Source of the DNA: a virus
Direction: 5' to 3' (one strand)
DNA length: 64,000 bases
Virus record (IMG/VR): IMGVR_UViG_3300019889_000011
Below the pieces are notes generated by a model, which was not told the DNA's origin, did not search any database, and saw only the letters and a program-made list of their open reading frames with translations. Below are positions 2,567 through 58,906 of the stretch, piece by piece (the stretch's first letter is position 1; the number at the start of each line of letters is the position of its first letter). A program made the translations under genes and the position numbers.

Positions 2567-2576
2567 GGAGCGAACG

Positions 2577-9807: not shown

Positions 9808-10001
9808 GGAGAATTACCGATGGATTTAGTCGTCAGCAAGCTTGAGATGGAGTGGGTTTTGACTAGCCTCGAACGAGGCGCTCCGATGAGTTTGTGTATC
9901 ACCAAGCATCACGTTGATGGAACGAAGGCCGAGCTACTTCTTAGCGAAGCTGAGACGACCATCCTGTCTCAACTCATCACAACCAGAAAGGACAAAGCAA
10001 C

Positions 10002-33755: not shown

Positions 33756-36700
33756 TTAGCTGCGCATGGTCAGAGGCGATCTGCGCTTGCGCTCAAAGAC
33801 TGCTGCGGCTCCACCCGCCGCGATGCCGGGTGCCGCTAAGCGGATGCCGCGCTGCACTGCGGCCTCCATCGCTGCCGGGTCATTCGCACCCCGAGCGTCC
33901 ACATGAATGTGGGTGTCGCCAATGGATGAGGAACTGCCGCCGAGTTTGTTATTCGGGATGATCGAGCCGCGCGCGCCGCTCATGAACATCTCGGGTCCGC
34001 GTTCGCCGACCATATAAGCGCTGCCGGGCGAGACCGGCCCACCAGTAGCAAGGCCCGGAAGAAACACGCCAAGGAGAGAACCTAGAATATCGCTGGACCC
34101 AATGCCCGCTGCACCCGTTATAGCGCTCACGGCTTTATCGGTGTCTGCCTGCTTCACCCAGAAAGGATTTGACTGAGAGCCGTCCGGCGCAGTGCCGCCG
34201 ATGTTGATGCCGAGTGCGCCTCCGACCGCACTCAGGCCAGCCTGAAGGCCCTTCTGAACCGTTGACCTCACCATCTGCTTGCCAACATCCGCAAACATTT
34301 TGCCGAAGTCTGCGTTACCTCCGGTCACCAGTTCGGTGATGCTGTCACCGACCTTTTGGAACGCATTGTGCAGCGCTTCATAGACGATCAGGCCGGTCGA
34401 AATGGCCGACCGCTGCATATCGAGGAAGAACGCTGTCACGCCATCTGTGGCGCGTCCGCTGATCAGAAGGAGCTTGATGGTTTCATCGGTCTGCTGGTTG
34501 AGGATTTCCTGATTCTTGGCGACAACTTGAAGGTTCTCTGCATAGGTAAGCGTCCCGCCATTCAGGGTTCGCATTGCTTCTGCCGCCGCCTTCAATCTGT
34601 CCTTCGGCTCCTGAGCCTTATCCGCCGGGGACCGCAGTTCACGTGCGTCCTGTAATGCTCTCTGTAGTTTGTCCTCAGCAGAACTGTCGATCATGGCCTG
34701 CCGCTGCTTCAACAACGCTTCCCGTAGTTCAGTCACCTTCGTTGTTGCAATCTGTGTGTCGATGGCATACAACTTCGCGCTGAGCGCTGCATCGTCCTGA
34801 GCGTCAACCGATTTGAGTGTGGCATCTGTAATGAGGCGACGCGCTGCAAGGTCATACCCCATGCTGATGACGTTGTCATTGATGGTCTTCTCCTCCTTCG
34901 CCACCGACTCGGAGAAGATGTCCTGCGAACGAGTGAGGATCTGCGCGAGGGTTCCGCCCTTCGTGCGAAGCTCGTTCCACGCCTGCTGGATTGCGTTCTG
35001 ACGCATGACCGCATCTGCGCCCTGATTGGTCGCCTGCGTCATCATGTTGGTCTGGCTGATGCTGAGTGCTGTGGCGCGGGCAGAGTTTTGGATTAGATCA
35101 CCCAGAGCTTTCTGCGCACCGTCCTCTGAAATCGTGCTCTCTGTCGAGCGAATCAGCGCCTGTGTTTTCTGGTCGACGAGTGAGGCATAGTCCTTTGTTT
35201 TCGCGCCGGTCTGCTTGGCTATCTCCTGGCCAAGCTTCATGATCTCGTTGTTGGCCTTGTTCGCGGCAGTCACCTTGCGCTGCGCCTGCTCCTCCAGACC
35301 CGCAGCTGCCAGCGTCTGCTTCGATTCGCTTAGCCGCTCCTGTAGGTCTGCAAGGAACTTGTTTCTCGGGTCTTCCTTCTCCGTGCCAAGGCCAGAAGTA
35401 TCTGGACCAGCATCACCCTTCGGTGGAGGTGGTCCATGCGGCGGCGGCGGTGGTGCAGGAGTATCTTTCGCTATACGTTGCTTCTTTGCCTCGTCGAGTG
35501 CCTTGACCGCCCACTGCGGCGTCAACTTCCCGAGCACGCTCTGTATCCACTCGAACGCCGAGCTGAAGACGCTGGAGATGACCTTCGTGACCGCGTTGTC
35601 AGCGAAGAACCCTATCAGGCCGGTCCATAGCGACTTGATCATTCCGATGAACGCATTGAATTGTTTGCCGATCCCTGTCAGCGCCCAGCCCATTGCGATC
35701 CAAGCGGCATTCCATGTGTCGCGCAGCTTGTAGGTGGAGTCTCCGATGGAGAACGTCGAGTCGCGGAACTTATAGAGCACCAGTGCCAGTCCAGCGATTG
35801 CCGCAATAGCGATGGTGGCAGGGGCAGTGAGGACCGCCACTGCACCGCCCAAGACATAGCTCGCAGCTGCCGCGATACCTTCGCTCTGTGCCAGCAGCAG
35901 GACGAACTTCGATGAGTAGGAGATCCAAGCTGCGAAGGTCGAGAGTTGTGGAACGACTTTCCCGAGACCGGCGAAGCCTAACATCATCTTCGTGATGCCC
36001 TCGCCGATCTTGCCGATACTGCCGGATGTTGCGAGGTCCCCGATAATCGGAATGGCGATCTTGGCCACCTGTATCCCAGCCAGCGACGCAAGCGCAATCT
36101 TCAACAGGCCGATATGTGTGACGGCGAACTCGATGCTATCGCCGAGCACTTGGATTGCCCGCGTGACGCCTGCACCGAACGACTTTGCAAGGTCGGGGAT
36201 GTTGGCATTTCTCGCAATCTCGACGAGCCTCTCCAGGAGGCCATCAAGGGCCGGGAGGACTGCGCCAAGCAGCGAGTACCCGATCCCCTTGAGCATCAGG
36301 TTCAGCCTGTCGAGGTTGTCGTGCGCCTTCTCCGCGAGGTCAGTGGTCGACGTCCCCAGCACTAGCCCGAAGCGATGCGCCTCTTCAGTCACCTTCGCCT
36401 GCTCCTCACCGAGCTGGTTGAGAAGAGGAATGAGGGACGCGGCTCCCTTGCCGAAGAGTTGAACGACGAGTGCGGTCTTGCCGCCGGAGGTCGACATCTT
36501 CGAGAACTTTGCTGCCAACTCCTCCATGAGGAGGCCGGAGTCTTTGATCCTTCCGTTCGCGCCGATGGCACTGACGCCGACACGTTCGAAGATGCGCTGA
36601 AGGGCCACGTTGCCGTTCTGCGCCTTGAACGCTGACGCGCTCAGCTTGACCAGTCCCTTGCCCAACTCCTCCGTGCTGACGTTGCTGAGGCCAGCGGCAT

Positions 36701-36974
36701 AGCTGAGGACCGAAAGCGTCTCTGCCGTTGTACCGGCAGATGCAGCCATTTTGCCAAGCTCGTCCGCAGCGTCGATGGCGCTCTTGATGGTTGCTGTGGT
36801 CGCAGTCGCAATAGCGCCAGCCATTGCCACGCCGACCAGTGTGATCTTCTCCAGCGACCGTTTGATATCGTTCGCGGTCTTCGCGGACAGACTGCTCATC
36901 TTGTCCATCGACTTAGAAAACGAGGCTGTATTAGCCTTCAGATCGATGGTGAGAACACCGACAACGACGCTCAC
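33756..36974 (-). CDS. Tail tape measure protein
   Basis: 1072 aa, largely alpha-helical and Ala/Gly-rich with a central hydrophobic segment and a proline tract PPPPPHGPPPPKG. It lies downstream of the chaperone pair. Confidence 0.85.
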   Translation of the reverse strand: MSVVVGVLTIDLKANTASFSKSMDKMSSLSAKTANDIKRSLEKITLVGVAMAGAIATATTATIKSAIDAADELGKMAASAGTTAETLSVLSYAAGLSNVSTEELGKGLVKLSASAFKAQNGNVALQRIFERVGVSAIGANGRIKDSGLLMEELAAKFSKMSTSGGKTALVVQLFGKGAASLIPLLNQLGEEQAKVTEEAHRFGLVLGTSTTDLAEKAHDNLDRLNLMLKGIGYSLLGAVLPALDGLLERLVEIARNANIPDLAKSFGAGVTRAIQVLGDSIEFAVTHIGLLKIALASLAGIQVAKIAIPIIGDLATSGSIGKIGEGITKMMLGFAGLGKVVPQLSTFAAWISYSSKFVLLLAQSEGIAAAASYVLGGAVAVLTAPATIAIAAIAGLALVLYKFRDSTFSIGDSTYKLRDTWNAAWIAMGWALTGIGKQFNAFIGMIKSLWTGLIGFFADNAVTKVISSVFSSAFEWIQSVLGKLTPQWAVKALDEAKKQRIAKDTPAPPPPPHGPPPPKGDAGPDTSGLGTEKEDPRNKFLADLQERLSESKQTLAAAGLEEQAQRKVTAANKANNEIMKLGQEIAKQTGAKTKDYASLVDQKTQALIRSTESTISEDGAQKALGDLIQNSARATALSISQTNMMTQATNQGADAVMRQNAIQQAWNELRTKGGTLAQILTRSQDIFSESVAKEEKTINDNVISMGYDLAARRLITDATLKSVDAQDDAALSAKLYAIDTQIATTKVTELREALLKQRQAMIDSSAEDKLQRALQDARELRSPADKAQEPKDRLKAAAEAMRTLNGGTLTYAENLQVVAKNQEILNQQTDETIKLLLISGRATDGVTAFFLDMQRSAISTGLIVYEALHNAFQKVGDSITELVTGGNADFGKMFADVGKQMVRSTVQKGLQAGLSAVGGALGINIGGTAPDGSQSNPFWVKQADTDKAVSAITGAAGIGSSDILGSLLGVFLPGLATGGPVSPGSAYMVGERGPEMFMSGARGSIIPNNKLGGSSSSIGDTHIHVDARGANDPAAMEAAVQRGIRLAAPGIAAGGAAAVFERKRRSPLTMRS

Positions 36975-37662: not shown

Positions 37663-38106
37663 TTAGACAACGGTTTCTGTTACGGCTCCGGCGATCTCCA
37701 TCGACAGCGTGAACTCGCCGAGGGTGCTGGGCTCGAACGGTCCAACGTCGTACTTCGAGATAAAGCCGACGCCGGTGAGTGTGTAGAGCTGCGTGCCCTT
37801 GTTGACCGGAGCCGTGATCTTGAACGGAAACACCGTGCGCCCCTGCGCAAGAGTGAGGATGGTGAGCTGAGAAGCGTCGCCAGTGAAGTTGCCGGTGATA
37901 TCGACCGTTCCGGGGCTGATGAGGCCGGGAAGCTTTTCCTCTGTCGCGTTCGGGCTTTGCAGGTGGGTGGCGTCGACGACCGGGATGGACGCGATGCTCG
38001 ACTTGATGGACTTGATTTCGGCCATCTGAGAATAAACAATGGGGCTGGCGGGGCTGCCTACAGAGAACGTGGACAGATATCCGATATTGGCTTTGGTTGC
38101 TGGCAT
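37663..38106 (-). CDS. Major tail protein (TP901-1 / GTA g9-like)
   Basis: 147-aa beta-rich protein with a good SD, immediately upstream of the chaperones. Confidence 0.65.
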   Translation of the reverse strand: MPATKANIGYLSTFSVGSPASPIVYSQMAEIKSIKSSIASIPVVDATHLQSPNATEEKLPGLISPGTVDITGNFTGDASQLTILTLAQGRTVFPFKITAPVNKGTQLYTLTGVGFISKYDVGPFEPSTLGEFTLSMEIAGAVTETVV

Positions 38107-38573: not shown

Positions 38574-39003
38574 GATTTGAGCGTGTCCACCGCTATGCGC
38601 ATGACGTCCGTAAACGCCGTCAGTGCCTGTTTGCTGCCCTCATCGAAGCCCGGTCGCATGAATGGTTGCGCGGGTCCGTGCAGGCCCATCTCAACGAGGA
38701 ATCCATAGACGCCCGGCGACTGCCTGCCTTCGGCGCTCTTATACTCCGGCCCGATGATGACGACGCCGGATTCTTCCTTGGGAGACAGCTTTACCTTCAT
38801 CACCAGCGAGTCGCGTAGTTCACCCGGTCGCTTCTGTAGCGTGCCCTTGAGCAGCACAGGAACCTTCGGCCTGATGGCGTCCAGCAGCACGTTGCCGCTG
38901 GCGACCAGACCCTTGCGCACGGCGCGCTTGGCGACCTTCTGACCGGCCTGCGCCAGCGCATCCTCCACGCCTTTCAATCCTTCGATATCGACGGTGATAT
39001 TCA
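38570..39003 (-). CDS. HK97 gp10-family head-tail joining protein
   Basis: MNITVDIEGLKGVEDALAQAG... is typical of the TIGR01725 family. The ORF-track extension upstream is antisense to the next gene. Confidence 0.5.
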
Positions 39004-39345
39004 TTGGCTGGTTCCGAGTGCAAGGCAGTTCAGGATGAGCACGATGTTGCGTTCGCCCGGGTTCTCGATGGACTGGATGAGGTAGCTTCCGTTCAGCGAG
39101 TCGACGCGCATGGTCGCCTTGATGTTTGGCTGCCAGTAAATCTTGAGAGTGAGGTAGAGCTGCGTCGTGTCCTGTCCCGACTTGATGACTTCTGCTCCCC
39201 TTACAGGTTCGATCTGCGCCCATGTCTTCAGGAGAGGTCTCCACTCTGTCGAGGTGCCGGATGCGTCTTCGACCGTGACGCTCTGATAAATCCACACCAC
39301 GTGGACCATCGCGCCGGGGTCGACCATTGGCCAAGGCTGCGGCAT
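39001..39345 (-). CDS. Head-tail adaptor / head closure protein
   Basis: About 114 aa with the GQDTTQLYLTLKIYWQP motif region typical of the SPP1 gp16 / HK97 gp9 class. Confidence 0.55.
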   Translation of the reverse strand: MPQPWPMVDPGAMVHVVWIYQSVTVEDASGTSTEWRPLLKTWAQIEPVRGAEVIKSGQDTTQLYLTLKIYWQPNIKATMRVDSLNGSYLIQSIENPGERNIVLILNCLALGTSQ

Positions 39346-39909
39346 CTATCGCGCCCTCACCAGCGAGCCATAGGTCAGGCACGAAGTCACGGTGTATGGA
39401 TATTCCGAAGCATCAGTCACTCCCTTTTCGAACGGAAGGCGGCTGTTGTACCAGTGGGAGATGAGAAGCTTCATGCCGACCTTCACGCGTGCTCCGGGGC
39501 CAAACCACCACGGATGATCGAGCAAATAGCCGCTGGTGAAGCGAATCAGGACCGCAGACGAAGGCCACGGCGTAAACGTTGGCCACGTGACGTTATATGG
39601 CGGCGTGATGATGCCGGTGCCCTTGGATGCATCGACGACATAGTCGGAAGATTTCATGACGGTCTGGTTGCCGTTTGAGTCGCGGTATTGCACGAGGTCG
39701 ACAGTGATGAGCGGAGCGCGCATGGCGACGCGATAGGACGGCCAGTAGTCATAGACCAAGTCCCACTGCTTGCGCACCAGATCGCGACCCTGCAAAATCT
39801 CAGCCTGTTCGCGCGCTGCCGTGATCAGCAAGCGCAGCTCAGCTTCGTCCTCTGCGTCGTAAACCGGCGAACGATCTGGAATCTTCAAGTAAGACTTGAT
39901 CTCTGTCAT
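39346..39909 (-). CDS. Head-tail connector (gp6-like) with C-terminal extension
   Basis: MTEIKSYLKIPDRSPVYDAEDEAELRLLITAAREQAEILQGR matches the Phage_connect_1 pattern. The start might instead be 40020. Confidence 0.5.
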   Translation of the reverse strand: MTEIKSYLKIPDRSPVYDAEDEAELRLLITAAREQAEILQGRDLVRKQWDLVYDYWPSYRVAMRAPLITVDLVQYRDSNGNQTVMKSSDYVVDASKGTGIITPPYNVTWPTFTPWPSSAVLIRFTSGYLLDHPWWFGPGARVKVGMKLLISHWYNSRLPFEKGVTDASEYPYTVTSCLTYGSLVRAR

Positions 39910-40016
39910 CGAGATCGGCTCGGTGAAGTACTGCTGCGGCGAAGTCTCGGTGAGGTTGATGCTCCCGTATGGGGTCAGACCCTCAATCGTGCCCGGGCTC
40001 ATGAATGGATATGTGC

Positions 40017-40358
40017 TCATAGGTTCACCAGCCGGACCGCAATACAGGCCCAGACAAATTTGCACGTGTAATGAATCGCCTGATCTTCGTAGAAGTTGAT
40101 CCAGCCTTCACACTTCGCGTAGTCGGTGAAGTAGTGAATGACTAACTCGGCCATCGCCAGCGATAGGCTGCCGGTGATGAGGAGGACCATGCCCATGTGA
40201 ATGAAGCAGTGCGCGAGCATAGCCTGCCACGCCGGGATGCCCTCGACCGGGTTCTTATGGTTCTTCGCTGAGGACAGGAACTGCCCTTGTAGTGGGTAGT
40301 CGCAGAGTGCATGACCAGCGCAAAGCATCATCAGCAAGTAGAGAAAACGGTGCAACAT
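40017..40358 (-). CDS. Small polytopic membrane protein adjacent to GT genes
   Basis: Three to four hydrophobic helices. A GtrA-like flippase role is possible but unproven. Confidence 0.4.
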   Translation of the reverse strand: MLHRFLYLLMMLCAGHALCDYPLQGQFLSSAKNHKNPVEGIPAWQAMLAHCFIHMGMVLLITGSLSLAMAELVIHYFTDYAKCEGWINFYEDQAIHYTCKFVWACIAVRLVNL

Positions 40359-41134
40359 CATAGCGGTCTCACCCGCAGAGGACCGGCCCACTTGAACACC
40401 GATTCACTCGGGAATAGATCGCCGACGACCATGTGGCGGTATCGGTCCTCGAAGTCGTTGTCCGGGTCGATGGAGTTGTACCAGTGGAACTTTCGAACCC
40501 GGTCCTCTTTGTGGAGATAGCCGTAGTGGAGCAACCGAACTGGGAGAGGGACAGCGTCATCCAGCAACTGCGCCGGTGCCGACGAGCAATGAAAGTTTCC
40601 GCCGTACTCCGTCCGCTTGAATGTCAGGTTTCTGTCGGTCAGACGGAAGAGCGACGGGCGACGGAACTCCTCATACCAGCGGTCGACGCGAATCTGATCC
40701 TCGCGGTCCCAGAGATAAACGACGTGCATGGTGCCTGCCGTCACTCGCCCCGCCATGATTACATCCGTGAGCGCCGGGACATCGCGGCTGTCGAGCGCCT
40801 CGTCACCATCGACCATCAGGCAGTAGTCGCCAATCTGCGCGCCAGCCTTCCACACTTCAGCCAGCAAAAAATCCTTGTCGCGAGCCTCGTGGATGCCTTC
40901 GAACGGCGACCGAATAACGGTGCAGTCCAAGTTCTCGCAGATGCTCACGGTGTCGTCGGTTGAGTGATCGTCGAACACGAAGATGCGCTCGCAGATCGGG
41001 TATATGGACCGGATGACGCGCTCGATCCACCGAGCCTCGTTCTTCACTCGCAGCATTCCGTATGTCATAAAGCTATGTTGTCCAGAGCTGAAACCCAGCC
41101 CACTTCTGAGTGAGTCGATTGTGGTAGAGCGCAT
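40358..41134 (-). CDS. GT-A fold glycosyltransferase (GT2-like)
   Basis: LRVKNEARWIERVIRSI...VFDDHSTDDT (DxD) ... MVDGDE. Start uncertain (41068 or 41134). Confidence 0.55.
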   Translation of the reverse strand: MRSTTIDSLRSGLGFSSGQHSFMTYGMLRVKNEARWIERVIRSIYPICERIFVFDDHSTDDTVSICENLDCTVIRSPFEGIHEARDKDFLLAEVWKAGAQIGDYCLMVDGDEALDSRDVPALTDVIMAGRVTAGTMHVVYLWDREDQIRVDRWYEEFRRPSLFRLTDRNLTFKRTEYGGNFHCSSAPAQLLDDAVPLPVRLLHYGYLHKEDRVRKFHWYNSIDPDNDFEDRYRHMVVGDLFPSESVFKWAGPLRVRPL

Positions 41135-41633
41135 GTTGTGCAGACCATTCACTCGATGGAAAGTTCGGCACGTGATTGGCGGCAGCATGCGGGACTATAA
41201 CCTTCATTCCTATCTGTCTCGCCTGCATGCATAGGTCTTCGACATGGCAATGAAACGAATCAAACCTATGCGAATCAAACTTCAATCTTGAATCTGTCGG
41301 AAAGAACACGCAGCAGCTGTCCACCGTGCTGACCTCTCCCGGATTGTGATGGCACCACCGGTACTGGCCTTCCCCCGAACGGCCAACGATGCCGCAAACA
41401 TTCCCCTTGGTAGCCTCTGTCCAGAAAGCCTCAAGCGCTCCATTGCGAAAAATCACGTCAGCATGAACTAAGCCGAAAACTTCTCTTGATGTCGAAAGGT
41501 GTTCGTTTCCGATAGACGCGAGCGCGCGGTTCGAACTGTTGACCACTAGGCGGACGTCCACTTCTTTAGAAATGTGGCTGAAGAAGCCGAAATCATCGCT
41601 GTTCGTCCCAACGACAACCATCGTCAGTCTCAT
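41073..41633 (-). CDS. Putative glycosyltransferase-like protein
   Basis: Sits inside the GT cluster. HADVIF and HCHVEDLC acidic/His motifs; weak. Confidence 0.35.
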   Translation of the reverse strand: MRLTMVVVGTNSDDFGFFSHISKEVDVRLVVNSSNRALASIGNEHLSTSREVFGLVHADVIFRNGALEAFWTEATKGNVCGIVGRSGEGQYRWCHHNPGEVSTVDSCCVFFPTDSRLKFDSHRFDSFHCHVEDLCMQARQIGMKVIVPHAAANHVPNFPSSEWSAQHALYHNRLTQKWAGFQLWTT

Positions 41634-42299
41634 TTAGAGAGGGTGCGCTCCATACTTTCTGACGAATATCTGGCGGTTCTCTTCAAAGGCTGCGGACGGA
41701 TACTGCTCGCCGCGAAACGTAGACTTCAACGAGGAATGGTCGACAAAGCAGTGGTCAAAAACGCCGATCTTCAACCCATGCTGCCGGACCCGCAGACAGT
41801 AAGAGTCGTCGTCATATCCGTACCCGGTGAACTCCTCGTCGAGCAGGCCAACCGTGTCGATGGTGCGTCTGGGGATGAGGACGCAGATGAAGCAGACCAT
41901 GCGCGGGACCTCGCGCAGTCCGATACCTTTCGGATGCTGATGCTCCTGTCCCGTCACGTCGGTGACTGCGGCGATGATCCCGAACTCAGGATGCTCGTCT
42001 GCCTGCCGCTGCATTGCGGTGAAGCCTCCCATCGTGCAAAGCATGGCATCGTCGTTCAACAGAATCACATCGTTATGCGCGGCTGCGGCGATTCCGACGT
42101 TGCAGTTCTGCGAATAGATGAAAGGGGTCTCTACCTCGCGCACGCGGTAGTGCCGGGAAGGTGGGATGAAGTGATTCTGACCGCTGCGGTCCCAGACCAC
42201 GATGATGTCGTCGTTGTAATCGTGGCGCTGAACCGCATCGACGCAGGGAGTGAGGTTCGATAGAGTGCGGCTGGGGATGATGACGGATAGTTGTCTCAT
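41634..42299 (-). CDS. Family-2 glycosyltransferase
   Basis: LSVIIPSR...LLNDD...YGYDDDSYCLR, the classic GT2 signature. Confidence 0.65.
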   Translation of the reverse strand: MRQLSVIIPSRTLSNLTPCVDAVQRHDYNDDIIVVWDRSGQNHFIPPSRHYRVREVETPFIYSQNCNVGIAAAAHNDVILLNDDAMLCTMGGFTAMQRQADEHPEFGIIAAVTDVTGQEHQHPKGIGLREVPRMVCFICVLIPRRTIDTVGLLDEEFTGYGYDDDSYCLRVRQHGLKIGVFDHCFVDHSSLKSTFRGEQYPSAAFEENRQIFVRKYGAHPL

Positions 42300-42940
42300 T
42301 GCTCTTCGGGAATGTGCTTCCAGTTGTCGCCCATCACGCGCGGGCTGGTGTTGCCGGGGTGGTTCGTTGCATACATCATCTTTCCGGCATCGACGCTGAT
42401 AAGCCGCCCTGCCGAAACTGCTACCGATACGAAGTCGTTATCCTCGCCGACGTTCTTCGCTTCAAACGGATGCGCCTGCCACCAGCTGCGCCGGTAGCAG
42501 AGCGATGTGCCAAGTGCATATCCCTTCGTGCCTTCGTACTTCCACCAGCGCTCGCCATCGGTAAAGGGCATCGAGTGGTATCCGCTGACGTCGTAGTTAC
42601 CCAACCGGTCTATCTGGTCGGCAAGTCGGCCAGGACCGCTCCAATCGTCGTCGTCCCAATGGCAGACCACATCTCCGGCTGCAAGGCTGCAACCAAAATT
42701 TCGCTTCTCGCCGATAGTGTGGACACCTGATACATGGACCAACCGTATGCGGTCATCATCAGGAACAAGATCACGAACGTCGTCTCCGTCTGCCAGAATC
42801 AGCAGTTCGCGGCGACTGTACGTCTGCTTCTGAAAGCACACTATCGCCTGCGGTAGCCACTTCCTCCGATTGCGTGTCAGGCACATGCACGTCACGAAAC
42901 GGACGTTCTGGGCGCACCTCTGGCGCTTCGGAAGGAACAA
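42296..42940 (-). CDS. Family-2 glycosyltransferase
   Basis: VTCMCLTRNRRKWLPQAI...ILADGDD...WDDDDW...GED. Confidence 0.6.
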   Translation of the reverse strand: MFLPKRQRCAQNVRFVTCMCLTRNRRKWLPQAIVCFQKQTYSRRELLILADGDDVRDLVPDDDRIRLVHVSGVHTIGEKRNFGCSLAAGDVVCHWDDDDWSGPGRLADQIDRLGNYDVSGYHSMPFTDGERWWKYEGTKGYALGTSLCYRRSWWQAHPFEAKNVGEDNDFVSVAVSAGRLISVDAGKMMYATNHPGNTSPRVMGDNWKHIPEEQ

Positions 42941-43097
42941 CTTGCTTGGTCTCGTAGACCACGGTCGGCGGCTCAGCCTTGTGTGCCAGATGGTTCGCCA
43001 CCAGCTGCTTGCCTATGTCGTCGCTGCACTCAAACTGATCGCCTGCGGCGACGGTGCCGTATACGCCCGTCAATTGTCGGTTTGCGATGAGCTTCAT
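42771..43097 (-). CDS. Small hypothetical protein at head of GT cluster (3' extent doubtful)
   Basis: ORF overlapping the GT2 start in another frame. Confidence 0.25.
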   Translation of the reverse strand: MKLIANRQLTGVYGTVAAGDQFECSDDIGKQLVANHLAHKAEPPTVVYETKQVVPSEAPEVRPERPFRDVHVPDTQSEEVATAGDSVLSEADVQSPRTADSGRRRRRS

Positions 43098-43162
43098 AGT
43101 TTCCTTCTGTTAGGCCAGCGTTACCCCTCACCCAGATCCGAGGTAACAACGCGCTAACTGCT

Positions 43163-43203
43163 CGAAAAAGAAGAGGTCACCGACCCTTGGCTGCGGTGAC
43201 CTC
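43163..43203 (-). terminator. Rho-independent terminator just downstream of major capsid gene
   Basis: GAGGTCACCG...CGGTGACCTC 10-bp stem. On the minus strand it is followed by TTCTTTTTCG. Confidence 0.5.
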
Positions 43204-43226
43204 TGTTTGGAAGTGAAGGCAACTGG

Positions 43227-44426
43227 TTAGGAGGCTGGCGACGAGTTGAACGCACCAGACACGAAACTTCCGGGACGAAGGACCACGAGCGCAAGCCGCT
43301 TTTCTGCACGAATGGCGACGAGGTTCTTCGTGAAGAAGTCAGAGTGCTCCGTCGAAATCTCGACCTGCATCTCCATGCGGTCGCGAATCTCAGCGGCTGC
43401 TGACTGGCCAGAGCCGACAAGGAAGGTGCCCGACACGACGCCGTTGGTCGGCACCGTGATCAAGTCCCAGATGGTCGGATTGCCCTGCGTTTGTGGATCA
43501 CCAAGGATGTAGCGTCCCAAGGTGTCCTTCGTGCGTCGGATGTTCCACCAGTCGCGCGGGTTGAGCGCCACGAAGGTGGGCTCGATCTCGTCGGCAATCT
43601 CAATCTGTTCGATTGCGGCACCGAGTTGATCGATCCGGGTGAAGCTGGACCCCAGCAGTGAGGCATTGAACGGAGTCGCCTGAGTGATCAAACCGTTCAA
43701 GTTCTCGCCGGTGTTGTCACCGCTCAGAAGCTGACGCTCCTCTTCGCGGTTGACATAGTACGGCATCGCCGAGCGCAGGAAGCCTTCGAGTTCAGTGAAG
43801 TCATCGAGCGCCTGCCGTGACGCCGGAATCCAGCTGGCAATCGTCTTCACCGCTGCGGTGGCAGTGGTAAAGGTGACTCCCGCTTCCGGCTTCTGGAGCG
43901 TTTCAGCAACCGGCGACGCGATGTTCGGCGGCTGGTTGACCTTGACGTAGTAGATCAGTCCGGCTGTCGTTGGTCGCGAAGAGAGCATGTCGCGGATGGT
44001 GAGCTTGCGACGTGCTTCCGGCACGATTCCCGGCATACGTTCGATCTCGACTACGCCAGCGGTTCCGGCACCGAGACCGGACAGCGTGACTGTGGTCTTG
44101 ACCTCCATCAGGTCCGATACCTGCTTACCGCTCAGGTTGATGATGGCGTGACCTTTCTTGTCGCGAACAAGGCGGCTAATATCCTCGTTCTCTTTCAGAT
44201 AGTCCAGCAACGATTTCTGTGTTTCTGGGCTGTTGCCGAGCCGCTGTACCAGCTTCAGTTCGAGCGCGTCGTACTGAGTCTGGAGCGCCTTGAGTTCGGT
44301 GACGGTGGTGGAGAGGACAGTGCCGTTATTCTTGGCTTCCTCGCTTGCCTTCTCAAAGTGGTTCTTGAGTTCGGCCTGTAGCGCCACGAGCTTTGCTTCG
44401 AGGGCTTTGGTGTCCTGATTTTCCAT
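43227..44426 (-). CDS. Major capsid protein, HK97 fold (with N-terminal delta domain)
   Basis: 399 aa with a coiled-coil N-terminus then the HK97-like core. Paralogous to 58907-60091. It follows the protease gene. Confidence 0.85.
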   Translation of the reverse strand: MENQDTKALEAKLVALQAELKNHFEKASEEAKNNGTVLSTTVTELKALQTQYDALELKLVQRLGNSPETQKSLLDYLKENEDISRLVRDKKGHAIINLSGKQVSDLMEVKTTVTLSGLGAGTAGVVEIERMPGIVPEARRKLTIRDMLSSRPTTAGLIYYVKVNQPPNIASPVAETLQKPEAGVTFTTATAAVKTIASWIPASRQALDDFTELEGFLRSAMPYYVNREEERQLLSGDNTGENLNGLITQATPFNASLLGSSFTRIDQLGAAIEQIEIADEIEPTFVALNPRDWWNIRRTKDTLGRYILGDPQTQGNPTIWDLITVPTNGVVSGTFLVGSGQSAAAEIRDRMEMQVEISTEHSDFFTKNLVAIRAEKRLALVVLRPGSFVSGAFNSSPAS

Positions 44427-44469: not shown

Positions 44470-45495
44470 CTAGTCCTTTGGCGGGATAAGCTTGATGATT
44501 TCGTCGAGGATTTTCTCTGCCGAGTGGGTGTTCTCCGGCTCAGGAATGATCGGCGCGGCTTTCGCTTCGGGAGTGTCGGCGGCCTTATCGTCTTCGTCAT
44601 CAGGGTCGTCGTCGGCTCCTTCCGGGAGAAGTGTGTCGAAAATGTCTTTGAGCTGCTTCACGTGATCGTGTGCAGCTTTCAATGTCGTCATGTTGGCGGC
44701 GCTGAACTCGCGGCCAGCCTTGCTCTCCATGAATGCTTGCAGGCTCTTAGTCACCAGCGCGAGAGCGTGCTCCTGCCGTCGCTCCTGCGACATCAGTTCC
44801 ATGTCGCCATATTGCTCAGTCAGGTATGCGAGATAGAGCGGGAGGTAAGCGAGAAAGGCATCTTTGAACTGGTCAATCGTGACTCCTGCTGCGGTTACCT
44901 TGTCGTCGATAGAGATGCCATCGGCCCACGTCAGGAAGCCGAGCGAGTTGAACAAAGCGCAGAACAATTGCGAACCGGCATCCATCAACTGAAGCTCGGT
45001 CAACTCCGCGTCGAAGGTATCCTTCCGCTCCTTGATTGCTTTGATGGCCGTGACCATTGCGGCCTCGTTCATAGGGAAGGTGACCACGCTGCCCTCCCAC
45101 AACCGCAGCTCCTTCAGGCGGCGGATTTTGCCGTCGACCGATTCTTTGATGGTGTCGTAGCCGATGGACAGTCCCTTGATGATGTGCGCCTTCAGCAGCA
45201 GATAGGCTTTCTGCGCGACCGGCAGGTCCAGCAGAAGCTGGCCCTTGACGCGGAGTGCGTCGGGACTATCGATCAGAGTCAGGGAGCCGATGGGTTCCTC
45301 GGTGTCATGCTGCCAGAGGAGCGGGACCGTGGAGCCGTGCTCCTGAATCGTCTTGGTGAACGCACCCGGCTCGATGAGGTCTTTGCCAAGGTCCACGTTG
45401 TTGTAGACCGCGAGCAGACCATCGAATGATCCGTCCTCGTTGATCGCTTTGATCTCGACCCGGAAGCTGCGCTTTACCTGTTTGATAGATGGCAT
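44470..45495 (-). CDS. Prohead protease fused to scaffold domain
   Basis: N-terminal HK97-type prohead protease (GLSIGY motif, as in the paralog at 58145-58894), then a helical acidic C-terminal scaffold-like region. Confidence 0.7.
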   Translation of the reverse strand: MPSIKQVKRSFRVEIKAINEDGSFDGLLAVYNNVDLGKDLIEPGAFTKTIQEHGSTVPLLWQHDTEEPIGSLTLIDSPDALRVKGQLLLDLPVAQKAYLLLKAHIIKGLSIGYDTIKESVDGKIRRLKELRLWEGSVVTFPMNEAAMVTAIKAIKERKDTFDAELTELQLMDAGSQLFCALFNSLGFLTWADGISIDDKVTAAGVTIDQFKDAFLAYLPLYLAYLTEQYGDMELMSQERRQEHALALVTKSLQAFMESKAGREFSAANMTTLKAAHDHVKQLKDIFDTLLPEGADDDPDDEDDKAADTPEAKAAPIIPEPENTHSAEKILDEIIKLIPPKD

Positions 45496-45525: not shown

Positions 45526-46878
45526 TTACTCGCCGAGCCGCACGAGCGCGGTTTGCGTCGCTGGCTTGTCGCTGCCCGGTATGGTCTGCATGTTGAGTTG
45601 AATGTGGTGAGCGTCGCCACCTTGAATCGGGTCCCAGTTCTCCAGATCGCGAACCTCGTTGACGCTGGTGACCGCGTTCTGGAGCAGCGTCGCGTAGCCT
45701 GCGACCCGGCTCGCGAAGTCGCCACGAAGCAACGCGTCGAGATTGTGCCGAAAGAAGTAGCCTGCGGCCTTCTCCTCCGGCGTGAGCACGCATCGCCATA
45801 GCTCCTGCTCCCAACGGATGAGCCACGAAGAGAGCGTCAACTTCACAAACTGAAGTGCGAGCTGCTCGATGTTGGAGAAGGTCGCGCGTGACAGATCGCC
45901 GACGAGATGTGGCGACACGGAGAACCAGCGGCATATTTCGTTGATATCGAAGAGCCGGGTCTCAAGCATCTGCGCGTCGAGCGGGTTGATGCCGATCTGC
46001 TGGTATTTGGTCCCGTTCTCAAGGATGGGTGCCCGGTGCGGCTCCGAATAGGTCTTCTCCCAATCGGTGCGGAACTTATCGAAGTCCGTGTCGCTGGCGA
46101 ACTTCTTTTCCATGTTGAGGATGTACGGGACGCGACCGCCGTTCGCATAGAAGCGCGCGACGTGACGCTCGGCGGCAATCGCGGTCCCGATGGACTGCCG
46201 CGCCATGTGGATGACGGAGTATCCCTGCACACCGTCCGAACCCAACCCGCGAATGTGGAGGATGTCCTGCGGCTTGCCACGCTGCACGGTGAAGGTCTTG
46301 CTGCTGTTATTGCCGTCCTTCACGACGTAGACGAGCCGCTTCTCTCCAGTCTTCTCGCGGTCGACCATGACCTGCGATTGGTCGATGGGCTGAAGCTCAA
46401 TCGCCGTACCCGTACCACTGCGCCGGATGATCTGTGCATAGCCGTTGCCGTTGAGCACGCACTGGCTGGTGCGGGTCTCGCGGAAGGTCATCGCAGTCAT
46501 CTCGTCGTTGGGAGCGTTGTGTAGCGCGAGATTCATGGGATGGCTACTGGCAACCTCTTTCCCTGTCGCATTCTGCCGGAACATGCTCAGGGGAAGGAAG
46601 CCGACTGTTTCGCTGATCAGGCGGTTGCAGGCCCAGCAGACGGAATGGTTGAGCGCGGTGCTGACGCTCACTCTCTCACCCGACCACGCTGGCGAGCCGC
46701 TAGAGATCATGGCATAGATGCCCCTGTAGCCGTTCTCGCGATACCAGTCCGGGCTTTCCCCTATGCTGAAGGTGCTGACGTCCTTCTTTGCGAGATCGAG
46801 CGATACAGAGCGGTCATCGAAAGCGTCCCTGACGTTTCTGGCGGCGGTCTTCAATGCATCAGTGATTGCAGGAAACAC
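45526..46878 (-). CDS. Portal protein (HK97 family)
   Basis: 450 aa between the terminase and protease genes; composition and layout typical of Phage_portal. Confidence 0.7.
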   Translation of the reverse strand: MFPAITDALKTAARNVRDAFDDRSVSLDLAKKDVSTFSIGESPDWYRENGYRGIYAMISSGSPAWSGERVSVSTALNHSVCWACNRLISETVGFLPLSMFRQNATGKEVASSHPMNLALHNAPNDEMTAMTFRETRTSQCVLNGNGYAQIIRRSGTGTAIELQPIDQSQVMVDREKTGEKRLVYVVKDGNNSSKTFTVQRGKPQDILHIRGLGSDGVQGYSVIHMARQSIGTAIAAERHVARFYANGGRVPYILNMEKKFASDTDFDKFRTDWEKTYSEPHRAPILENGTKYQQIGINPLDAQMLETRLFDINEICRWFSVSPHLVGDLSRATFSNIEQLALQFVKLTLSSWLIRWEQELWRCVLTPEEKAAGYFFRHNLDALLRGDFASRVAGYATLLQNAVTSVNEVRDLENWDPIQGGDAHHIQLNMQTIPGSDKPATQTALVRLGE

Positions 46879-48566
46879 TAGTTGACGCTCCGCAGTCCGG
46901 TGTAAGTGATGGTCTGCGATTCGGCCACCAATGCGCGATTGAGAAGCGTGACTGTCGCCGCAATGCCGTCGATGCGCTTCGACGACTTGAGACGTTCCGG
47001 CTTAGTGGGTTGGCAGTTGTCTTTGCGGTCGTACTGCAATTGCAGACACGCCGCGTGCCAGTTGTAGACAGGGTTATTGCCGTGGCGAATCTTCTTGTCG
47101 AGATACTGAGACAGAATGAATTTTGTTGGGAAGCCAAGCTGCATAAAGTTCTGCTGCACCTCGACGGCGTCGATCCCTTCATCGATCAGCTCCATCGCTT
47201 CGGTACGGAAGTTGCAGCGGTCGAAGGCAAGCTCGCGAAGCTCGAACATCTCCCGGCCCCAGCGGATGCGGTCCTTCACGACGCGGAGGTCTATGGCGTT
47301 GCCGCTGGTCGCCGTGACGAAGCCGCGTCGAACCCAATCAGTGAACGGCAAGCGACAGATGCGCTCCAGCTCCGGGACTCTCTCCTCGGGTACGTAGAAG
47401 AATGGGAGGAAGGTCCACGCGTTGATAGCAGCAGACGGTTCGAAGCCGAACACGACAGCCGTGAAGTCGGTCGTCCATGAAGCGTCAACGCCAACCCAGC
47501 ACGGCTTGTCGAGCAGCCCCCACTTTCGAATCAACAGTTCCACGTCATATTCCGGCCATTCGCGCAGATCGACGTCGCCGCCGCACGCCTGCCATTTGGC
47601 CATGTCGATGATCGGATCTTGCTGCGTGGCAATCGGCATGTTCAGGTGGTAGCGGAGGTACTTGCTGCGCTGTGCTGGCTGTGCCAGCGCCTTGTCCATC
47701 TCGCGGACGATAGACGCATCCTTGAGGAAGCCGCCACGATCCTCGTGGCTCGGGTTGGCGGCAACGCGCGCCTCGCGAGACTTCCAATACTCCGGGTCCG
47801 CTTCGAGCTTCTTCTTGTCAGCCTCCCAGACAGCTGCGTAGAACCCGGGCGACGGCAAGGAGCCGTCGATGACCTTCTTCGCTACCTCATACTCCTGAAA
47901 CCAGAGCGGCGACTCATACTCCGCGCCTGCGGTAGTGATGGCCAGGTCGAGCGGCTCGTCGCGTGAAATCTGCCCCTTGGTCGTGACGTCGTAGAGCGTC
48001 TCTGCCTTTGAACTCTTCCAGCGGTGCATCTCATCGCGGATGAGCAGGCTGGGCCGGATGCCGTCCTGCACGTCGCCGTCAGCCGAGAGCACCTGATAGG
48101 TGCCGCCGCCGTCACGACGAACGATTCGCTTGGTGCTGGGAATCACCTTGAGACGAGCGCGCAGATCGGGATTGGCGCTGACCAGCATCGCCGCCGCTTT
48201 GAAGACGATGCCAGCCTGCTCCTTCGCCGCCGCTGCGCCGTAGGCTTCGGGATTCAACTCTGACTCCATGAGCATGTGATAGATGGGGAGGCCGCCCGTA
48301 AGGAACGACTTGCCGTTCTGTTTACCCGTCGAGATGTAGCCGCGTTGATACTGGCGCTTGCCGTCGTCCGCTTGCACCGTTCCGAAGATGTCGCGGAGCA
48401 CTTTGCGGTGCCAGTCGAGCAGACGATAGCCGAGCGGTGGATAGAGGATCTCCGAGTAGAAGCGTTCGACCTTGCACGCTTTGCACTGCGGTTTGCCGTT
48501 CTGCCGAGTCTCGCACCATGTGTCCGCATCGCAATAAGCGCAGGTGTTTGGCTTGTATTCAGCCAC
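46878..48566 (-). CDS. terL: Terminase large subunit
   Basis: Walker A GKQNGKS, an N-terminal Cys4 zinc ribbon, then an ATPase domain and a nuclease domain. Confidence 0.85.
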   Translation of the reverse strand: MAEYKPNTCAYCDADTWCETRQNGKPQCKACKVERFYSEILYPPLGYRLLDWHRKVLRDIFGTVQADDGKRQYQRGYISTGKQNGKSFLTGGLPIYHMLMESELNPEAYGAAAAKEQAGIVFKAAAMLVSANPDLRARLKVIPSTKRIVRRDGGGTYQVLSADGDVQDGIRPSLLIRDEMHRWKSSKAETLYDVTTKGQISRDEPLDLAITTAGAEYESPLWFQEYEVAKKVIDGSLPSPGFYAAVWEADKKKLEADPEYWKSREARVAANPSHEDRGGFLKDASIVREMDKALAQPAQRSKYLRYHLNMPIATQQDPIIDMAKWQACGGDVDLREWPEYDVELLIRKWGLLDKPCWVGVDASWTTDFTAVVFGFEPSAAINAWTFLPFFYVPEERVPELERICRLPFTDWVRRGFVTATSGNAIDLRVVKDRIRWGREMFELRELAFDRCNFRTEAMELIDEGIDAVEVQQNFMQLGFPTKFILSQYLDKKIRHGNNPVYNWHAACLQLQYDRKDNCQPTKPERLKSSKRIDGIAATVTLLNRALVAESQTITYTGLRSVN

Positions 48567-49071
48567 ACAGCTTCATCTCCAGCGCGTCCATAGCGCCGCC
48601 GTCCGCTGCGGCATCGATGCGTGTCCGCGACGATGGCGTGAGGCCGAACTCCCTGCGTTCGATGATGACGCGGGCTGCAAGGTGACCGACTGAGTTCATC
48701 GCCATGCGTCCGTTCTTCATCGTCAGCAGCATCATGATTTCGCCGTGCTGTAACCGCTTGCCCTGCGCCTTGGCCTCGCGCTTGATGGCGGCGGCCATGC
48801 TCCAGATGCCTTCATAAGCTGAGGCCAACATCGCCTCATCTTCCGCGAGCTGCCAGAGAGCGCGACGATCCACGCGGCGAAGGATTGCTGCGCTGGCCAT
48901 CTCGCAGACCATCTCGTCCCAGACAGCGCTTGCAGCGCGGCTGATCTTCTTCGGCTTCGATGGGATGCCGGGAGCGAACTGCGGCTCGTTCTCGTTGAGC
49001 GGACGGCGTGAAGGATTGCCTTCGATCCGGCGCAGTTCGGTTGGTTTTGGTGCTGGTCCTCTCAGGCCCAC
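48559..49071 (-). CDS. terS: Terminase small subunit, P27 family (GTG start)
   Basis: LRGPAPKPTELRRIEGNPSRRPLNENEP N-terminus with SD AAAGGA before GTG 49071. The upstream ORF-track extension is antisense to the DUF3489 gene. Confidence 0.65.
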   Translation of the reverse strand: MGLRGPAPKPTELRRIEGNPSRRPLNENEPQFAPGIPSKPKKISRAASAVWDEMVCEMASAAILRRVDRRALWQLAEDEAMLASAYEGIWSMAAAIKREAKAQGKRLQHGEIMMLLTMKNGRMAMNSVGHLAARVIIERREFGLTPSSRTRIDAAADGGAMDALEMKLCG

Positions 49072-49160
49072 GCTGATCCTTTGTAGCGCTTTGTCGCGAA
49101 TTGACTTGCAATCATGCCGGATCGGAGCGTTCCTCGTGATGGTTCCAAGGAGGAACGAAC

Positions 49161-49541
49161 ATGACCACCAAGCAGACCAAAGTCGCCACCGCCGCCAAGA
49201 AGTCCACCACCAAGAAGGCCACCACGAAGAACACGCCCAGCAAGACTGCTGCGGCCAAGCCCAAGGCCACGAAACCGGCCAGCGTTCGCGCACAGTCGCC
49301 CACCACGCCGCCCAAGGCAGCAACGGAGGGGAAACCTACCACCCCGCGCAAGGACGGCACCAAGGCTAAAGTCTTGGCGATGATCAGCCAGAAGGGTGGA
49401 GCCACCCTGCCGAAGATCATGGAAGCCACCGGCTGGCAGGCTCACAGCGTCCGTGGCCTGATGGCGACGCTGGGCAAGACGATGAAGATCGAGAGCCTGA
49501 AGAACGAGGCTGGCCAGCGCACGTATATTCATCACGCGTAG
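49161..49541 (+). CDS. Histone H1-like low-complexity protein with DUF3489-like C-terminal domain
   Basis: SD AGGAGG. K/T/A-rich N-terminus (KKSTTKKATTKNTPSKTAAAKPKATKPA), then KVLAMISQKGGATLPKIMEATGWQAHSVRGLMATLGK. Its orientation is opposite to the flanking genes. Confidence 0.5.
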   Translation: MTTKQTKVATAAKKSTTKKATTKNTPSKTAAAKPKATKPASVRAQSPTTPPKAATEGKPTTPRKDGTKAKVLAMISQKGGATLPKIMEATGWQAHSVRGLMATLGKTMKIESLKNEAGQRTYIHHA

Positions 49542-50803
49542 GTTCCAGTCTGTTCGGCAGAGGCGGCAGAGATGCCGCCTTCGCTCGTTCTGGCTGCTTT
49601 CAATTCCTCGAACGTCCTGCCGTCGCCGTCGAGCGTGGCCTGCTTGCCGGTGAAGGTCTGCCAGCGCGTGATGATGACGTCGCAGTAAGCCGGATCAATC
49701 TCCGTGGTACGGCATAGCCGCCCTTCCATCTCGCAGGCAATCAGCGTGGTTCCGGACCCGCCGAACGGGTCGAGGACCACGTCGCCGCCCTTGCTGCTGT
49801 TCGCAATTGGGTATGCCACCAGCGCAACTGGCTTCATCGTCGGGTGCTCTTGGCTTTGCGACGGTCGGTCGAAGTGCCAGAGCGTCGTCTGCTTCCGGTC
49901 CGAGTACCAGCGATGGGCTGCTGTCGCCTTCCAGCCGTACAACACAGGCTCGTGTTGCCACTGGTAGTCCGAACGTCCGAACACCATGGTCTGCTTCGCC
50001 CAGACGCAACACGCGGCCAGATAGAAGCCAGCCTCAAGGTACGCTTTGCGGAAGTTGAGACCCTCGGTATCGGCGTGGAAGATGTAGATGGATGCGCCGT
50101 CGCCCATCGCGTTGAACATGCACCGATAGGCGTTCAGCAGGAAGCCGTAGAAGTCGAGATCGTCTTTCTTGTCGTTCTCGATCTTCAGCGCCTTCTTTGT
50201 CTTGCCGGTGTAGTCGATGTTGTATGGCGGGTCCGTCACCACCAGCGCAGCCGAGCGTCCGTCCATCAGCCGGTCGACATCAGCCTGCTTCGTGGAATCG
50301 CCGCATAGCAGTCGGTGGTTGCCGAGCACCCAGAGGTCTCCAGCCTGCGTGACCGGCGTCGCGGGCACCGCTGGAACTTCGTCCGCGTCCGTGAGGCTGT
50401 CCGTAGACTTCGCCATCAACTCCGCAAGTTCGCTCTCGTCGAATCCGGTCAGGCTCATGTCCATGTCGAGCGCTCTCAGATCCAGCAGCTCCGCGCCGAG
50501 CAGAGCGGAATCCCAATCGGTCTCGTCGTGGCTTCGGTTATCCATGAGCCGGTATGCGCGAACCTGTGTCGGGTTGAGGTCGGTGGCGACGTGAACCGGC
50601 ACCGTCTCCGCGCCCATCCTCTTCGCTGCCAGCAGCCGCGCGTGACCGACGATGATAACGCCTTCGGTATCAACGACGATGGGTTGCCGCCAGCCGAACT
50701 CGCGAATGCTCGCAGCTACCTTGTCGACGGCGGCGTCGCTGATCTTTCGAGCGTTTTGCGGATACGGCGTGGGGCGGCCAATCGGCCAGGATTCAATGTT
50801 CAT
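49532..50803 (-). CDS. ParB-like nuclease domain fused to N6/N4 DNA methyltransferase
   Basis: N-terminal ParB-like region (QPIVVDTEGVIIVGHARLLAA), a central TDPPY motif, and a C-terminal AdoMet site VLDPFGGSGTT. Confidence 0.8.
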   Translation of the reverse strand: MNIESWPIGRPTPYPQNARKISDAAVDKVAASIREFGWRQPIVVDTEGVIIVGHARLLAAKRMGAETVPVHVATDLNPTQVRAYRLMDNRSHDETDWDSALLGAELLDLRALDMDMSLTGFDESELAELMAKSTDSLTDADEVPAVPATPVTQAGDLWVLGNHRLLCGDSTKQADVDRLMDGRSAALVVTDPPYNIDYTGKTKKALKIENDKKDDLDFYGFLLNAYRCMFNAMGDGASIYIFHADTEGLNFRKAYLEAGFYLAACCVWAKQTMVFGRSDYQWQHEPVLYGWKATAAHRWYSDRKQTTLWHFDRPSQSQEHPTMKPVALVAYPIANSSKGGDVVLDPFGGSGTTLIACEMEGRLCRTTEIDPAYCDVIITRWQTFTGKQATLDGDGRTFEELKAARTSEGGISAASAEQTGTYA

Positions 50804-58894: not shown

Positions 58895-58906
58895 TGGTTC
58901 CCCCGT

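Follow-up and report, generated by a model that had tools for sequence, protein, structure and literature searches.

A few mycobacteriophages are, to our knowledge, the only phages for which phage-encoded enzymes have been demonstrated to glycosylate the virion, and this alters how antibodies see the particle. Here, we analyzed a cluster of glycosyltransferase (GT) genes at positions 40017-43203 of a 64,000-nucleotide stretch of viral DNA (IMG/VR record IMGVR_UViG_3300019889_000011; the whole stretch is referred to as the window), located between the capsid and head-tail genes of a phage. GT genes are also found on temperate phages as Gtr seroconversion cassettes, which encode a GtrA flippase, a GtrB with C-terminal transmembrane (TM) helices and a polytopic GtrC, and lie adjacent to int/att. 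For the mycobacteriophages, virion glycosylation has been described for Corndog gp35-38 and Che8 gp108-110 (Freeman et al. 2023, as related in PMC11600133, PMC12363180 and PMC12619734). One of these later accounts has the glycans attached to capsid and tail tube subunits at their C-termini (PMC12619734), and another reports the GT Che8 gp110/Corndog gp38 as essential for capsid glycosylation (PMC12363180). In the Corndog genome, an O-methyltransferase (gp35) and three GTs (gp36-38) are encoded between portal and protease, and the capsid proteins and tail tube proteins of Che8 and Corndog all terminate in GS or GDS. Cluster J mycobacteriophages contain an island of 8-10 genes, mostly GTs and S-adenosylmethionine (SAM) methyltransferases, between the capsid and head-tail connector genes; the function of that island is unproven in the paper describing it (Pope et al. 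2013, PMC3706429). A study of ten phages examined for virion glycosylation found none (PMC12894461), and our literature search yielded no account of a glycosylated virion for any phage with a diderm host.

In the window, the island is bounded upstream by the gene for an HK97-type major capsid protein (MCP; 43227-44426; PF05065 7e-40, phrog_10 8e-60) and downstream by the head-tail adaptor gene (39346-40002; phrog_442 1.8e-11, phrog_40 2.9e-8), with all genes on the minus strand. It consists of orf108 (42771-43097), which encodes a small conserved protein, followed by the core genes GT1 (42296-42895) and GT2 (41634-42299), the rare accessory gene GT3 (41073-41633) and the core gene GT4 (40358-41068), the last on the adaptor side, next to an accessory gene for a small DUF3307 membrane protein (40017-40361). 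The sequence-only reading of the window had noticed GTs and a small membrane protein between the capsid and head-tail genes, and both this content and this position were confirmed, with corrections; it overlooked a sixth gene, orf108, between the terminator and GT1. Our analysis gives good support for the island as a conserved module of the genome, and a role as a capsid-glycosylation system is plausible.

Comparison with described systems

Like Corndog and Che8, the phage in the window encodes a set of soluble GT-A enzymes; in Corndog these are accompanied by a methyltransferase and, as here, lie in the virion operon. The capsid protein of the window has a hydroxyl-rich C-terminal tail. Furthermore, GT2 is a distant homologue of Corndog gp37 (BLASTP, 24% identity over 177 aa, E 6e-6) and of Che8 gp109 (hhalign, 85%). 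However, no counterpart of gp110/gp38 was found, with hhalign reaching a probability of at most 7.5% (GT2 versus Corndog gp38, 37 columns, E 0.005) and staying below 1% for the other pairs, and GT4, the most conserved gene of the island, has no mycobacteriophage relative. The C-terminal motif of the window is [ST]SP and occurs on the capsid protein only, whereas the mycobacteriophage substrates, capsid as well as tail tube, end in G-S or G-D-S. The slot differs as well, being capsid-adaptor instead of portal-protease (Corndog) or the right genome end (Che8), and the host is probably a diderm of the Acidobacteriota, not an actinobacterium. Orthology with the mycobacteriophage enzymes was considered and rejected, as only generic GT-A similarity was seen (GT1 to Che8 gp108; GT2 to Che8 gp109 and Corndog gp37).

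The Cluster J island occupies exactly the same slot and likewise varies in content between relatives, but it belongs to phages of a different host phylum and also contains a Ser/Thr kinase and a metalloprotease-like gene; this comparison was made at the family level only. The sequence-only reading had regarded the slot as unusual for such genes. It is not unprecedented, given the Corndog GTs between portal and protease and the Cluster J island in the capsid-connector slot itself. The reading's further remark, that such an arrangement would be uncommon in a phage of a Gram-negative host, stands: we found no close homologues in cultured phages and no reported case in the literature searched. The module is nearest to mycobacteriophage virion glycosylation in its proposed function and to the Cluster J island in position, and by homology it belongs to neither.

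GT4 shares a GT2-family GT-A catalytic domain with the glycocin S-/O-glycosyltransferases SunS and ThuS and with GmaR, an O-GlcNAc transferase of flagellin, in which this domain transfers a sugar directly to a polypeptide. Unlike these enzymes, GT4 is a bare catalytic domain without a TPR-like peptide-binding domain, and no precursor peptide or transporter gene is adjacent. The resemblance to Gtr cassettes is that GT genes are carried by a temperate phage and that, in the window, a small membrane protein adjoins a GT2-family gene. Otherwise, the two differ: neither GtrA (PF04138), GtrB nor GtrC was found, the GTs have no TM anchors, the island lies inside the late operon with the integrase 14 kb away beyond the tail genes, and the membrane protein is a DUF3307 protein that is not conserved with the island. 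The Pfam check proposed by the sequence-only reading, to decide whether the proteins are Gtr-like, accordingly came out negative.

The island enzymes

Membership in the GT-A group was judged by the Pfam gathering cut-off for PF00535 (23.3 bits) or, alternatively, by a confident fold combined with a DxD-type motif. GT1 (46.3 bits, 6e-12) and GT4 (33.7 bits, 4e-8) exceed the cut-off, and GT4 is also above that of PF13704 (1.6e-8). GT1 has a conserved WDDDDW motif with D96, D98 and D99 kept, and its GTG start is conserved; most loci have an in-frame stop shortly upstream of this start. GT2 stays under the PF00535 cut-off with 18.7 bits; it matches the glycosyltransferase family phrog_2456 (1.3e-6) and weakly PF02709, its NDD motif is conserved, and its C-terminal segment is beta4GalT-like. 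For GT3, which has a weak Pfam match, an alignment of 16 sequences yielded an AlphaFold model (pLDDT 94) of a minimal GT-A fold. The best Foldseek match of this model was majastridin (1.4e-8, TM-score 0.71), followed by the mucin-type polypeptide GalNAc-transferases (ppGalNAc-T; TM-score 0.63-0.70), and a profile search of PDB sequences also returned majastridin (2qgi, 4e-4). H57-x-D59 and H154 of GT3 are invariant.

GT4 (236 aa) contains the motifs DDHSxDxT, DGDE and GGNFHCSS. Its model (pLDDT 95) gave SunS/ThuS as the top Foldseek matches (E 8e-12 to 3e-10), with TarS as the next family (1e-7), while the GT4 profile searched against PDB sequences returned GmaR first (1.3e-8) and then ThuS/SunS. 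Foldseek matches in BFVD were uncharacterized viral GT2 proteins only. GT4 scored 18.5 bits against the SunS family TIGR04195, for which the cut-off is 350, and all NCBIfam matches of the GTs, the weak ones being TuaG, EpsE, HfsG and AglJ, were far under their cut-offs. Each of the four GT families has kept its acidic metal and nucleotide-sugar motifs, and no hydrophobic segment in GT1-GT4 reaches the length needed to cross a membrane. All four island enzymes are soluble GT-A enzymes with intact motifs. The sequence-only reading had counted three clear GT-A/GT2 enzymes and one GT-like gene; judged by the Pfam cut-offs, only GT1 and GT4 are clear members, and GT2 and GT3 needed profile or structure evidence.

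Conservation of the island among related phages

To compare the locus with its relatives, IMG/VR was scanned with a GT4 profile, which returned 80 loci (GT4 identity 42-92%) onto which the window proteins were mapped by phmmer and hidden Markov models. A scan with a capsid profile matched more than 583 loci, 80 of which were taken. Counts upstream of GT4 refer to the 45 loci with at least 6 kb on that side and counts downstream to the 69 loci with at least 1.5 kb.

Recognizable virion genes on the same strand were present in 68 of the 80 GT4 loci, and the dominant order was capsid, orf108, GT1, GT2, a variable section of 0-5 kb, GT4, and adaptor/head-closure. Upstream of GT4, GT1 was found in 43/45 loci, GT2 in 42/45 and a recognizable capsid gene in 32/45. 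Downstream, a structural gene, most often the adaptor, started within 700 nt in 49/69 loci, and an adaptor homologue did so in 30/69. The distance from the end of the capsid gene to the end of GT4 ranged from 1.8 to 8.4 kb. Variant orders, with the adaptor before GT1 or the island 3' of the head-closure gene, remained inside the head-tail assembly block. The same pattern was seen in the metagenome loci L005-L008. Since the same order recurs in dozens of diverged contigs, chance is no concern for the capsid-connector arrangement. A collection of 5.8 billion proteins contains 848 GT4 homologues, nearly all of them unnamed metagenome proteins and many on contigs of 35-67 kb, and context look-ups revealed that the capsid-connector slot is likewise occupied in diverged relatives. 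No close relative of the region, GT1, GT2 or GT4 turned up when 50,697 deposited phage genomes were searched at the DNA and protein levels.

Capsid relatives at 34-40% identity have the adaptor and head-closure genes directly after the capsid gene and carry no glycosyltransferases. As the island is missing only in capsid relatives at or below 40% identity, the core of GT1, GT2 and GT4, usually preceded by orf108, is an old module that one clade has kept by vertical descent. The sequence-only reading had spoken of an inserted island; the synteny comparison that it suggested shows no recent insertion but an ancestral conserved module, missing only at or below 40% capsid identity. Its tight packing among the virion genes and a slot kept over a long evolutionary distance make the island unlike morons or Gtr cassettes.

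The reading's grouping of five genes into a single unit does not hold among relatives, where GT3 occurs in 4 of the 80 GT4 loci and DUF3307 in none. GT3 has 16 homologues in the whole database, and its GC content at third codon positions is 0.58 versus 0.73-0.79 in neighboring genes; it is a rare add-on, probably acquired recently. The DUF3307 protein (PF11750, 30.1 bits versus a cut-off of 23; phrog_2470, 1.7e-26) had been described as a small polytopic membrane protein. It has one strong and two weaker hydrophobic segments, including a segment at 47-77. DUF3307 homologues exist in 177 deposited phage genomes, mostly of Proteobacteria phages and including jumbo phages, at positions unrelated to GTs, such as just upstream of terminase in a Bradyrhizobium phage or among early genes in Sulfitobacter phages. 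A role as a GtrA-like flippase partner was rejected based on its absence from all 80 islands, these unrelated positions and the lack of a Pfam link to GtrA. DUF3307 is an independent passenger gene placed between GT4 and the adaptor, outside the conserved island, and together with GT3 it seems to be a recent passenger in this phage.

Larger related islands, of up to ~8 kb, additionally encode a DegT-type aminotransferase, a GNAT acetyltransferase, SAM methyltransferases, a PIG-L deacetylase, an RmlD-like reductase and a TOD1/MUCI70-like transferase. Such enlarged islands were located at 5266-10753 of L005/L006, 2962-8000 of L046, 4756-5625 of L053 and 5789-6794 of L073. Because the content of tailoring enzymes differs among related islands, the glycan has probably been diversified between related phages. 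Among 392 island open reading frames (ORFs) of 48 loci, we found no polytopic membrane protein, flippase, polymerase or ligase, and no integrase homologue was found within 8 kb of GT4 in the 80 loci. Tailoring enzymes without envelope machinery suggest a kit that makes and transfers a tailored glycan from nucleotide sugars.

Operon packing, the hairpin after the capsid gene and the orf108 overlap

The genes of the island are joined to each other and to their neighbors by 4-nt overlaps or gaps of 0-14 nt, and no promoter-like site was found on the coding strand of the island. The placement of the GTs in a late virion operon, as described by the sequence-only reading, is thus supported.

The same reading stated that the capsid gene ends with its own terminator. 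A terminator-like structure is indeed present (hairpin and U tract, 43164-43204, minus strand): 22 nt past the MCP stop lies a 33-nt hairpin (43172-43204, -21.1 kcal/mol in RNAfold) followed by TCTTTTTC. It is, however, not specific to the island, since 20/46 island-bearing relatives and 19/66 island-less ones have a similar hairpin behind the capsid gene. With about equal frequency in the two groups, the hairpin is a feature of the lineage and no island marker, and its interpretation as an island boundary or a sign of separate expression was rejected for the same reason. As essential genes for head-tail joining and the tail follow downstream, the hairpin probably acts as a leaky attenuator or an mRNA stabilizer that raises capsid expression.

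Only the N-terminal ~42 aa of orf108 correspond to phrog_2616; beyond them, the protein has a disordered-looking P/E/S/T-rich region and an Arg-rich tail. In 27/45 GT4 loci, a homologue of orf108 stands behind the capsid gene, as it does in the island-less loci L108 and L129, and only six positions are conserved at 90% or more. The 3' end of orf108 overlaps GT1 by 125 nt (42771-42895, ~42 codons in another frame), and an overlap of this kind (125-170 nt across loci) is present in about 37-42 related loci, e.g., L016, L026 and L029. The Arg-rich end of orf108 (SGRRRRRS) is an alternate-frame reading of the GT1 ILADGDD motif. In most diverged loci the orf108 stop is at the homologous position, and when synonymous codons were resampled, the orf108 frame stayed open in ~30% of trials per locus. 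These observations suggest that the overlap is a case of conserved dual coding. A frameshift fusion of orf108 and GT1 was rejected, as an in-frame stop lies ~12 nt upstream of the GT1 GTG in most of the 42 loci.

A 20.7 kb part of the window is 100% identical to a metagenome contig in ENA (L001), in which the public gene calls at 9143-9415 and 9729-10004 (window 42885-43157 and 42296-42571) differ from the island genes: orf108 was missed and an opposite-strand ORF called in its place, and GT1 was cut to 91 aa. Part of the island is therefore hidden by automated annotation.

The capsid C-terminus as candidate acceptor

The capsid protein of the window ends in GAFNSSPAS, in which FNSSPAS is encoded by codons 43230-43250. 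Past a conserved G-[ST]-F, the consensus of the clade is a short, hydroxyl-rich F-[TNS]-[TS]-S-P(A). A C-terminal [ST]SP tail was found in 30/46 distinct island-bearing capsid proteins versus 1/55 island-less ones (Fisher P 6e-13, a value that overstates independence because the island-bearing phages are one clade). Within the GT4 loci, 30/49 capsid proteins have the motif at the C-terminus, compared with 3/3352 of the other ORFs. Tails of island-less capsid proteins are mostly acidic, e.g., EFEATP, and the capsid protein of the nearest island-less relative, L108, ends at GSY without a tail. Based on these comparisons, we consider the capsid C-terminal tail the best candidate acceptor.

Proposed function and alternative explanations

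The sequence-only reading had offered two options for the cluster, glycosylation of virion proteins or remodeling of the cell surface. The fold, the synteny and the mycobacteriophage precedent favor the former and make the latter the less favored of the two, and we judge, with some confidence, that the island is a cytoplasmic O-glycosylation module for virion proteins. According to this proposal, the core enzymes GT1, GT2 and GT4, with GT3 in this phage, would be co-transcribed with the late virion genes and would build an O-linked glycan on virion proteins, either ahead of assembly or in the course of it. As the enzyme nearest to SunS/ThuS and GmaR, GT4 would act as the initiating transferase and add the first sugar to a Ser or Thr of a virion protein; the acceptor would be the hydroxyl-rich C-terminal tail of the MCP. 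GT1, GT2 and GT3 would then lengthen the glycan, and the outcome would be a capsid glycan coat. As to its ecological role, one may speculate about a shield against proteases, sticking to soil or extracellular polysaccharide (EPS), or recognition. More tentatively, and at a probability a little short of even, we propose that this manner of capsid glycosylation is shared by a large clade of temperate siphophages whose hosts are soil Acidobacteriota, with GT4 starting the O-glycan on the F-[TNS]-[TS]-S-P tag and the variable gene set diversifying it.

Several points weigh against glycosylation of virion proteins. The GT2 family is generic, so that the type of acceptor is not readable from the fold, and soluble GT2 enzymes are also able to act on lipid-linked acceptors at the inner membrane. 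The TM-score of GT4 to SunS is ~0.55, and the match to GmaR spans the nucleotide-binding half only. No orthologue of Che8 gp110/Corndog gp38 was detected by hhalign of the GT family profiles or by BLASTP. Sixteen of the 46 island-bearing capsid proteins have no [ST]SP tail, the tail tube protein of the window ends in TETVV and has no motif in common with the capsid, and the association of tail and island is confounded by phylogeny, as the island-bearing phages form a clade. The host call comes from GT4 copies of 66-71% identity in metagenome-assembled genomes (MAGs), not from host genes in the window. Finally, phage and host are uncultured and the proposal rests on sequences and models.

The alternative that survives best, though we find it unlikely, is late modification of a host envelope glycan, in which the GTs would act on undecaprenyl-linked intermediates of lipopolysaccharide (LPS), EPS or capsule at the cytoplasmic face of the inner membrane. 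The altered surface could, e.g., stop progeny or competitors from adsorbing to infected cells and debris, and with read-through in a lysogen the effect would be lysogenic conversion. Most characterized GT2-family enzymes make cell-envelope glycans, and the weak NCBIfam matches of the island (TuaG, EpsE, HfsG, AglJ) are of that kind, but their scores are far under the cut-offs. JGI names for homologues, such as 'glycosyltransferase involved in cell wall biosynthesis' and 'O-antigen biosynthesis protein', point in the same direction, as does a GDSL-esterase tail protein that suggests a polysaccharide receptor. A membrane protein adjoins GT4 in the window, but this DUF3307 protein is in none of the 80 islands, and the 392 island ORFs contained no flippase, polymerase, ligase, GtrA/B/C or polytopic protein that could complete an envelope pathway. 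Moreover, the slot is fixed in the head-tail block across the clade, whereas morons and conversion cassettes are sporadic and near att/int; here the integrase is 14 kb off and, in the 80 loci, no integrase homologue lies within 8 kb of GT4.

We regard as quite improbable that the target is a protein or peptide outside the virion, be it a host protein modified during takeover, an assembly factor such as orf108, or a secreted glycopeptide like that of SunS/sublancin. This explanation draws on the closest solved relatives of GT4, which modify a secreted peptide (SunS/ThuS) and flagellin (GmaR), and on orf108, whose P/S/T-rich tail is encoded directly upstream of GT1 and which co-occurs with the island. 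However, no precursor peptide, leader or ABC transporter is encoded nearby, and GT4 with its 236 aa is without the C-terminal peptide-binding domains of SunS (~420 aa). Homologues of orf108 are also present in the island-less L108 and L129, with only six positions conserved at 90% or more, and a position amid head and tail genes speaks for virion substrates. Glycosylation of phage DNA against restriction is very improbable: phage GTs of several folds, acquired many times, are described as decorating 5-hydroxymethylpyrimidines (bioRxiv 10.1101/2023.12.21.572611; PMC12619734), and this phage encodes a ParB-N6/N4 DNA methylase, but the ORFs scanned (some small ones were not) contained no dCMP/dUMP hydroxymethylase, TET/JBP dioxygenase or C5-methyltransferase, their only DNA methylase being of the N6/N4 type, the genes lie in the head-tail block away from replication and nucleotide metabolism, and 3-10 transferases with tailoring enzymes per island suit a polymeric glycan better.

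Host and significance

GT4 copies of 66-71% identity were found in MAGs of Acidobacteriia and Bryobacterales, and one GT4 homologue carries the name Pyrinomonadaceae; no obvious host gene is present in the window. From the taxonomy of these MAGs, the host is probably a member of the Acidobacteriota, a diderm phylum. Acidobacteriota are among the most abundant and least tractable phyla of soil. A 718-aa protein of the tail region (31562-33718, minus strand) carries a C-terminal GDSL/SGNH esterase domain (PF13472, 1.7e-10), which hints at an acylated polysaccharide as the receptor.

If capsid glycosylation is true for this clade, it would be, among the records and papers searched, the first virion glycosylation system in phages of diderm hosts, and it would suggest that capsid glycan coats are a common, convergently evolved trait of soil phages instead of an oddity of actinophages. 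The module is present in hundreds of uncultured phages linked to Acidobacteriota, and a conserved, non-orthologous module at a similar location in the genome would suggest a strategy that is general among phages and was invented repeatedly. It is possible that many 'GT2 auxiliary metabolic genes' of soil viromes, counted as carbon-cycling genes (e.g., PMC11924767), are virion-modification genes instead. GT4 and the seven-residue capsid tail constitute a candidate enzyme-substrate pair that is testable in E. coli without culture of the host and that might serve the glyco-engineering of HK97-type capsids.

Genome organization

The late operon, with all genes on the minus strand, runs from the small terminase (48559-49323; phrog_83) through the large terminase TerL (46878-48566), portal (45526-46878), S78 prohead protease (44470-45495), MCP and island to the adaptor, the head closure gene (39001-39345) and the tail genes. 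The head closure gene is followed on its 3' side by a gp10-like gene and genes for tail completion, the major tail (tube) protein (37663-38106), chaperones and the tape measure (33756-36974). The tyrosine integrase is encoded at 24764-26086 on the minus strand. To the left of it are phage-type replication proteins, and these plus-strand genes (1418-7165: PD-(D/E)XK nuclease, SMC-like ATPase, DnaB helicase) and the minus-strand late operon (27529-49323) converge on the integrase. This convergent layout is that of an L5-like unintegrated temperate phage genome, rather than of a prophage flanked by host genes.

A fusion of a ParB N-terminal domain with an N6/N4 DNA methyltransferase is encoded directly upstream of the terminase genes (49532-50803, minus strand). 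In addition, the window encodes a second HK97-type capsid protein (58907-60091, minus strand; PF05065 1e-32) and a second S78 prohead protease (58145-58894), in the unusual order of capsid followed by protease; both stand apart from the main structural operon, and there are no glycosyltransferases close to them. This pair (58145-60091) may represent a second element or a satellite-like remnant.

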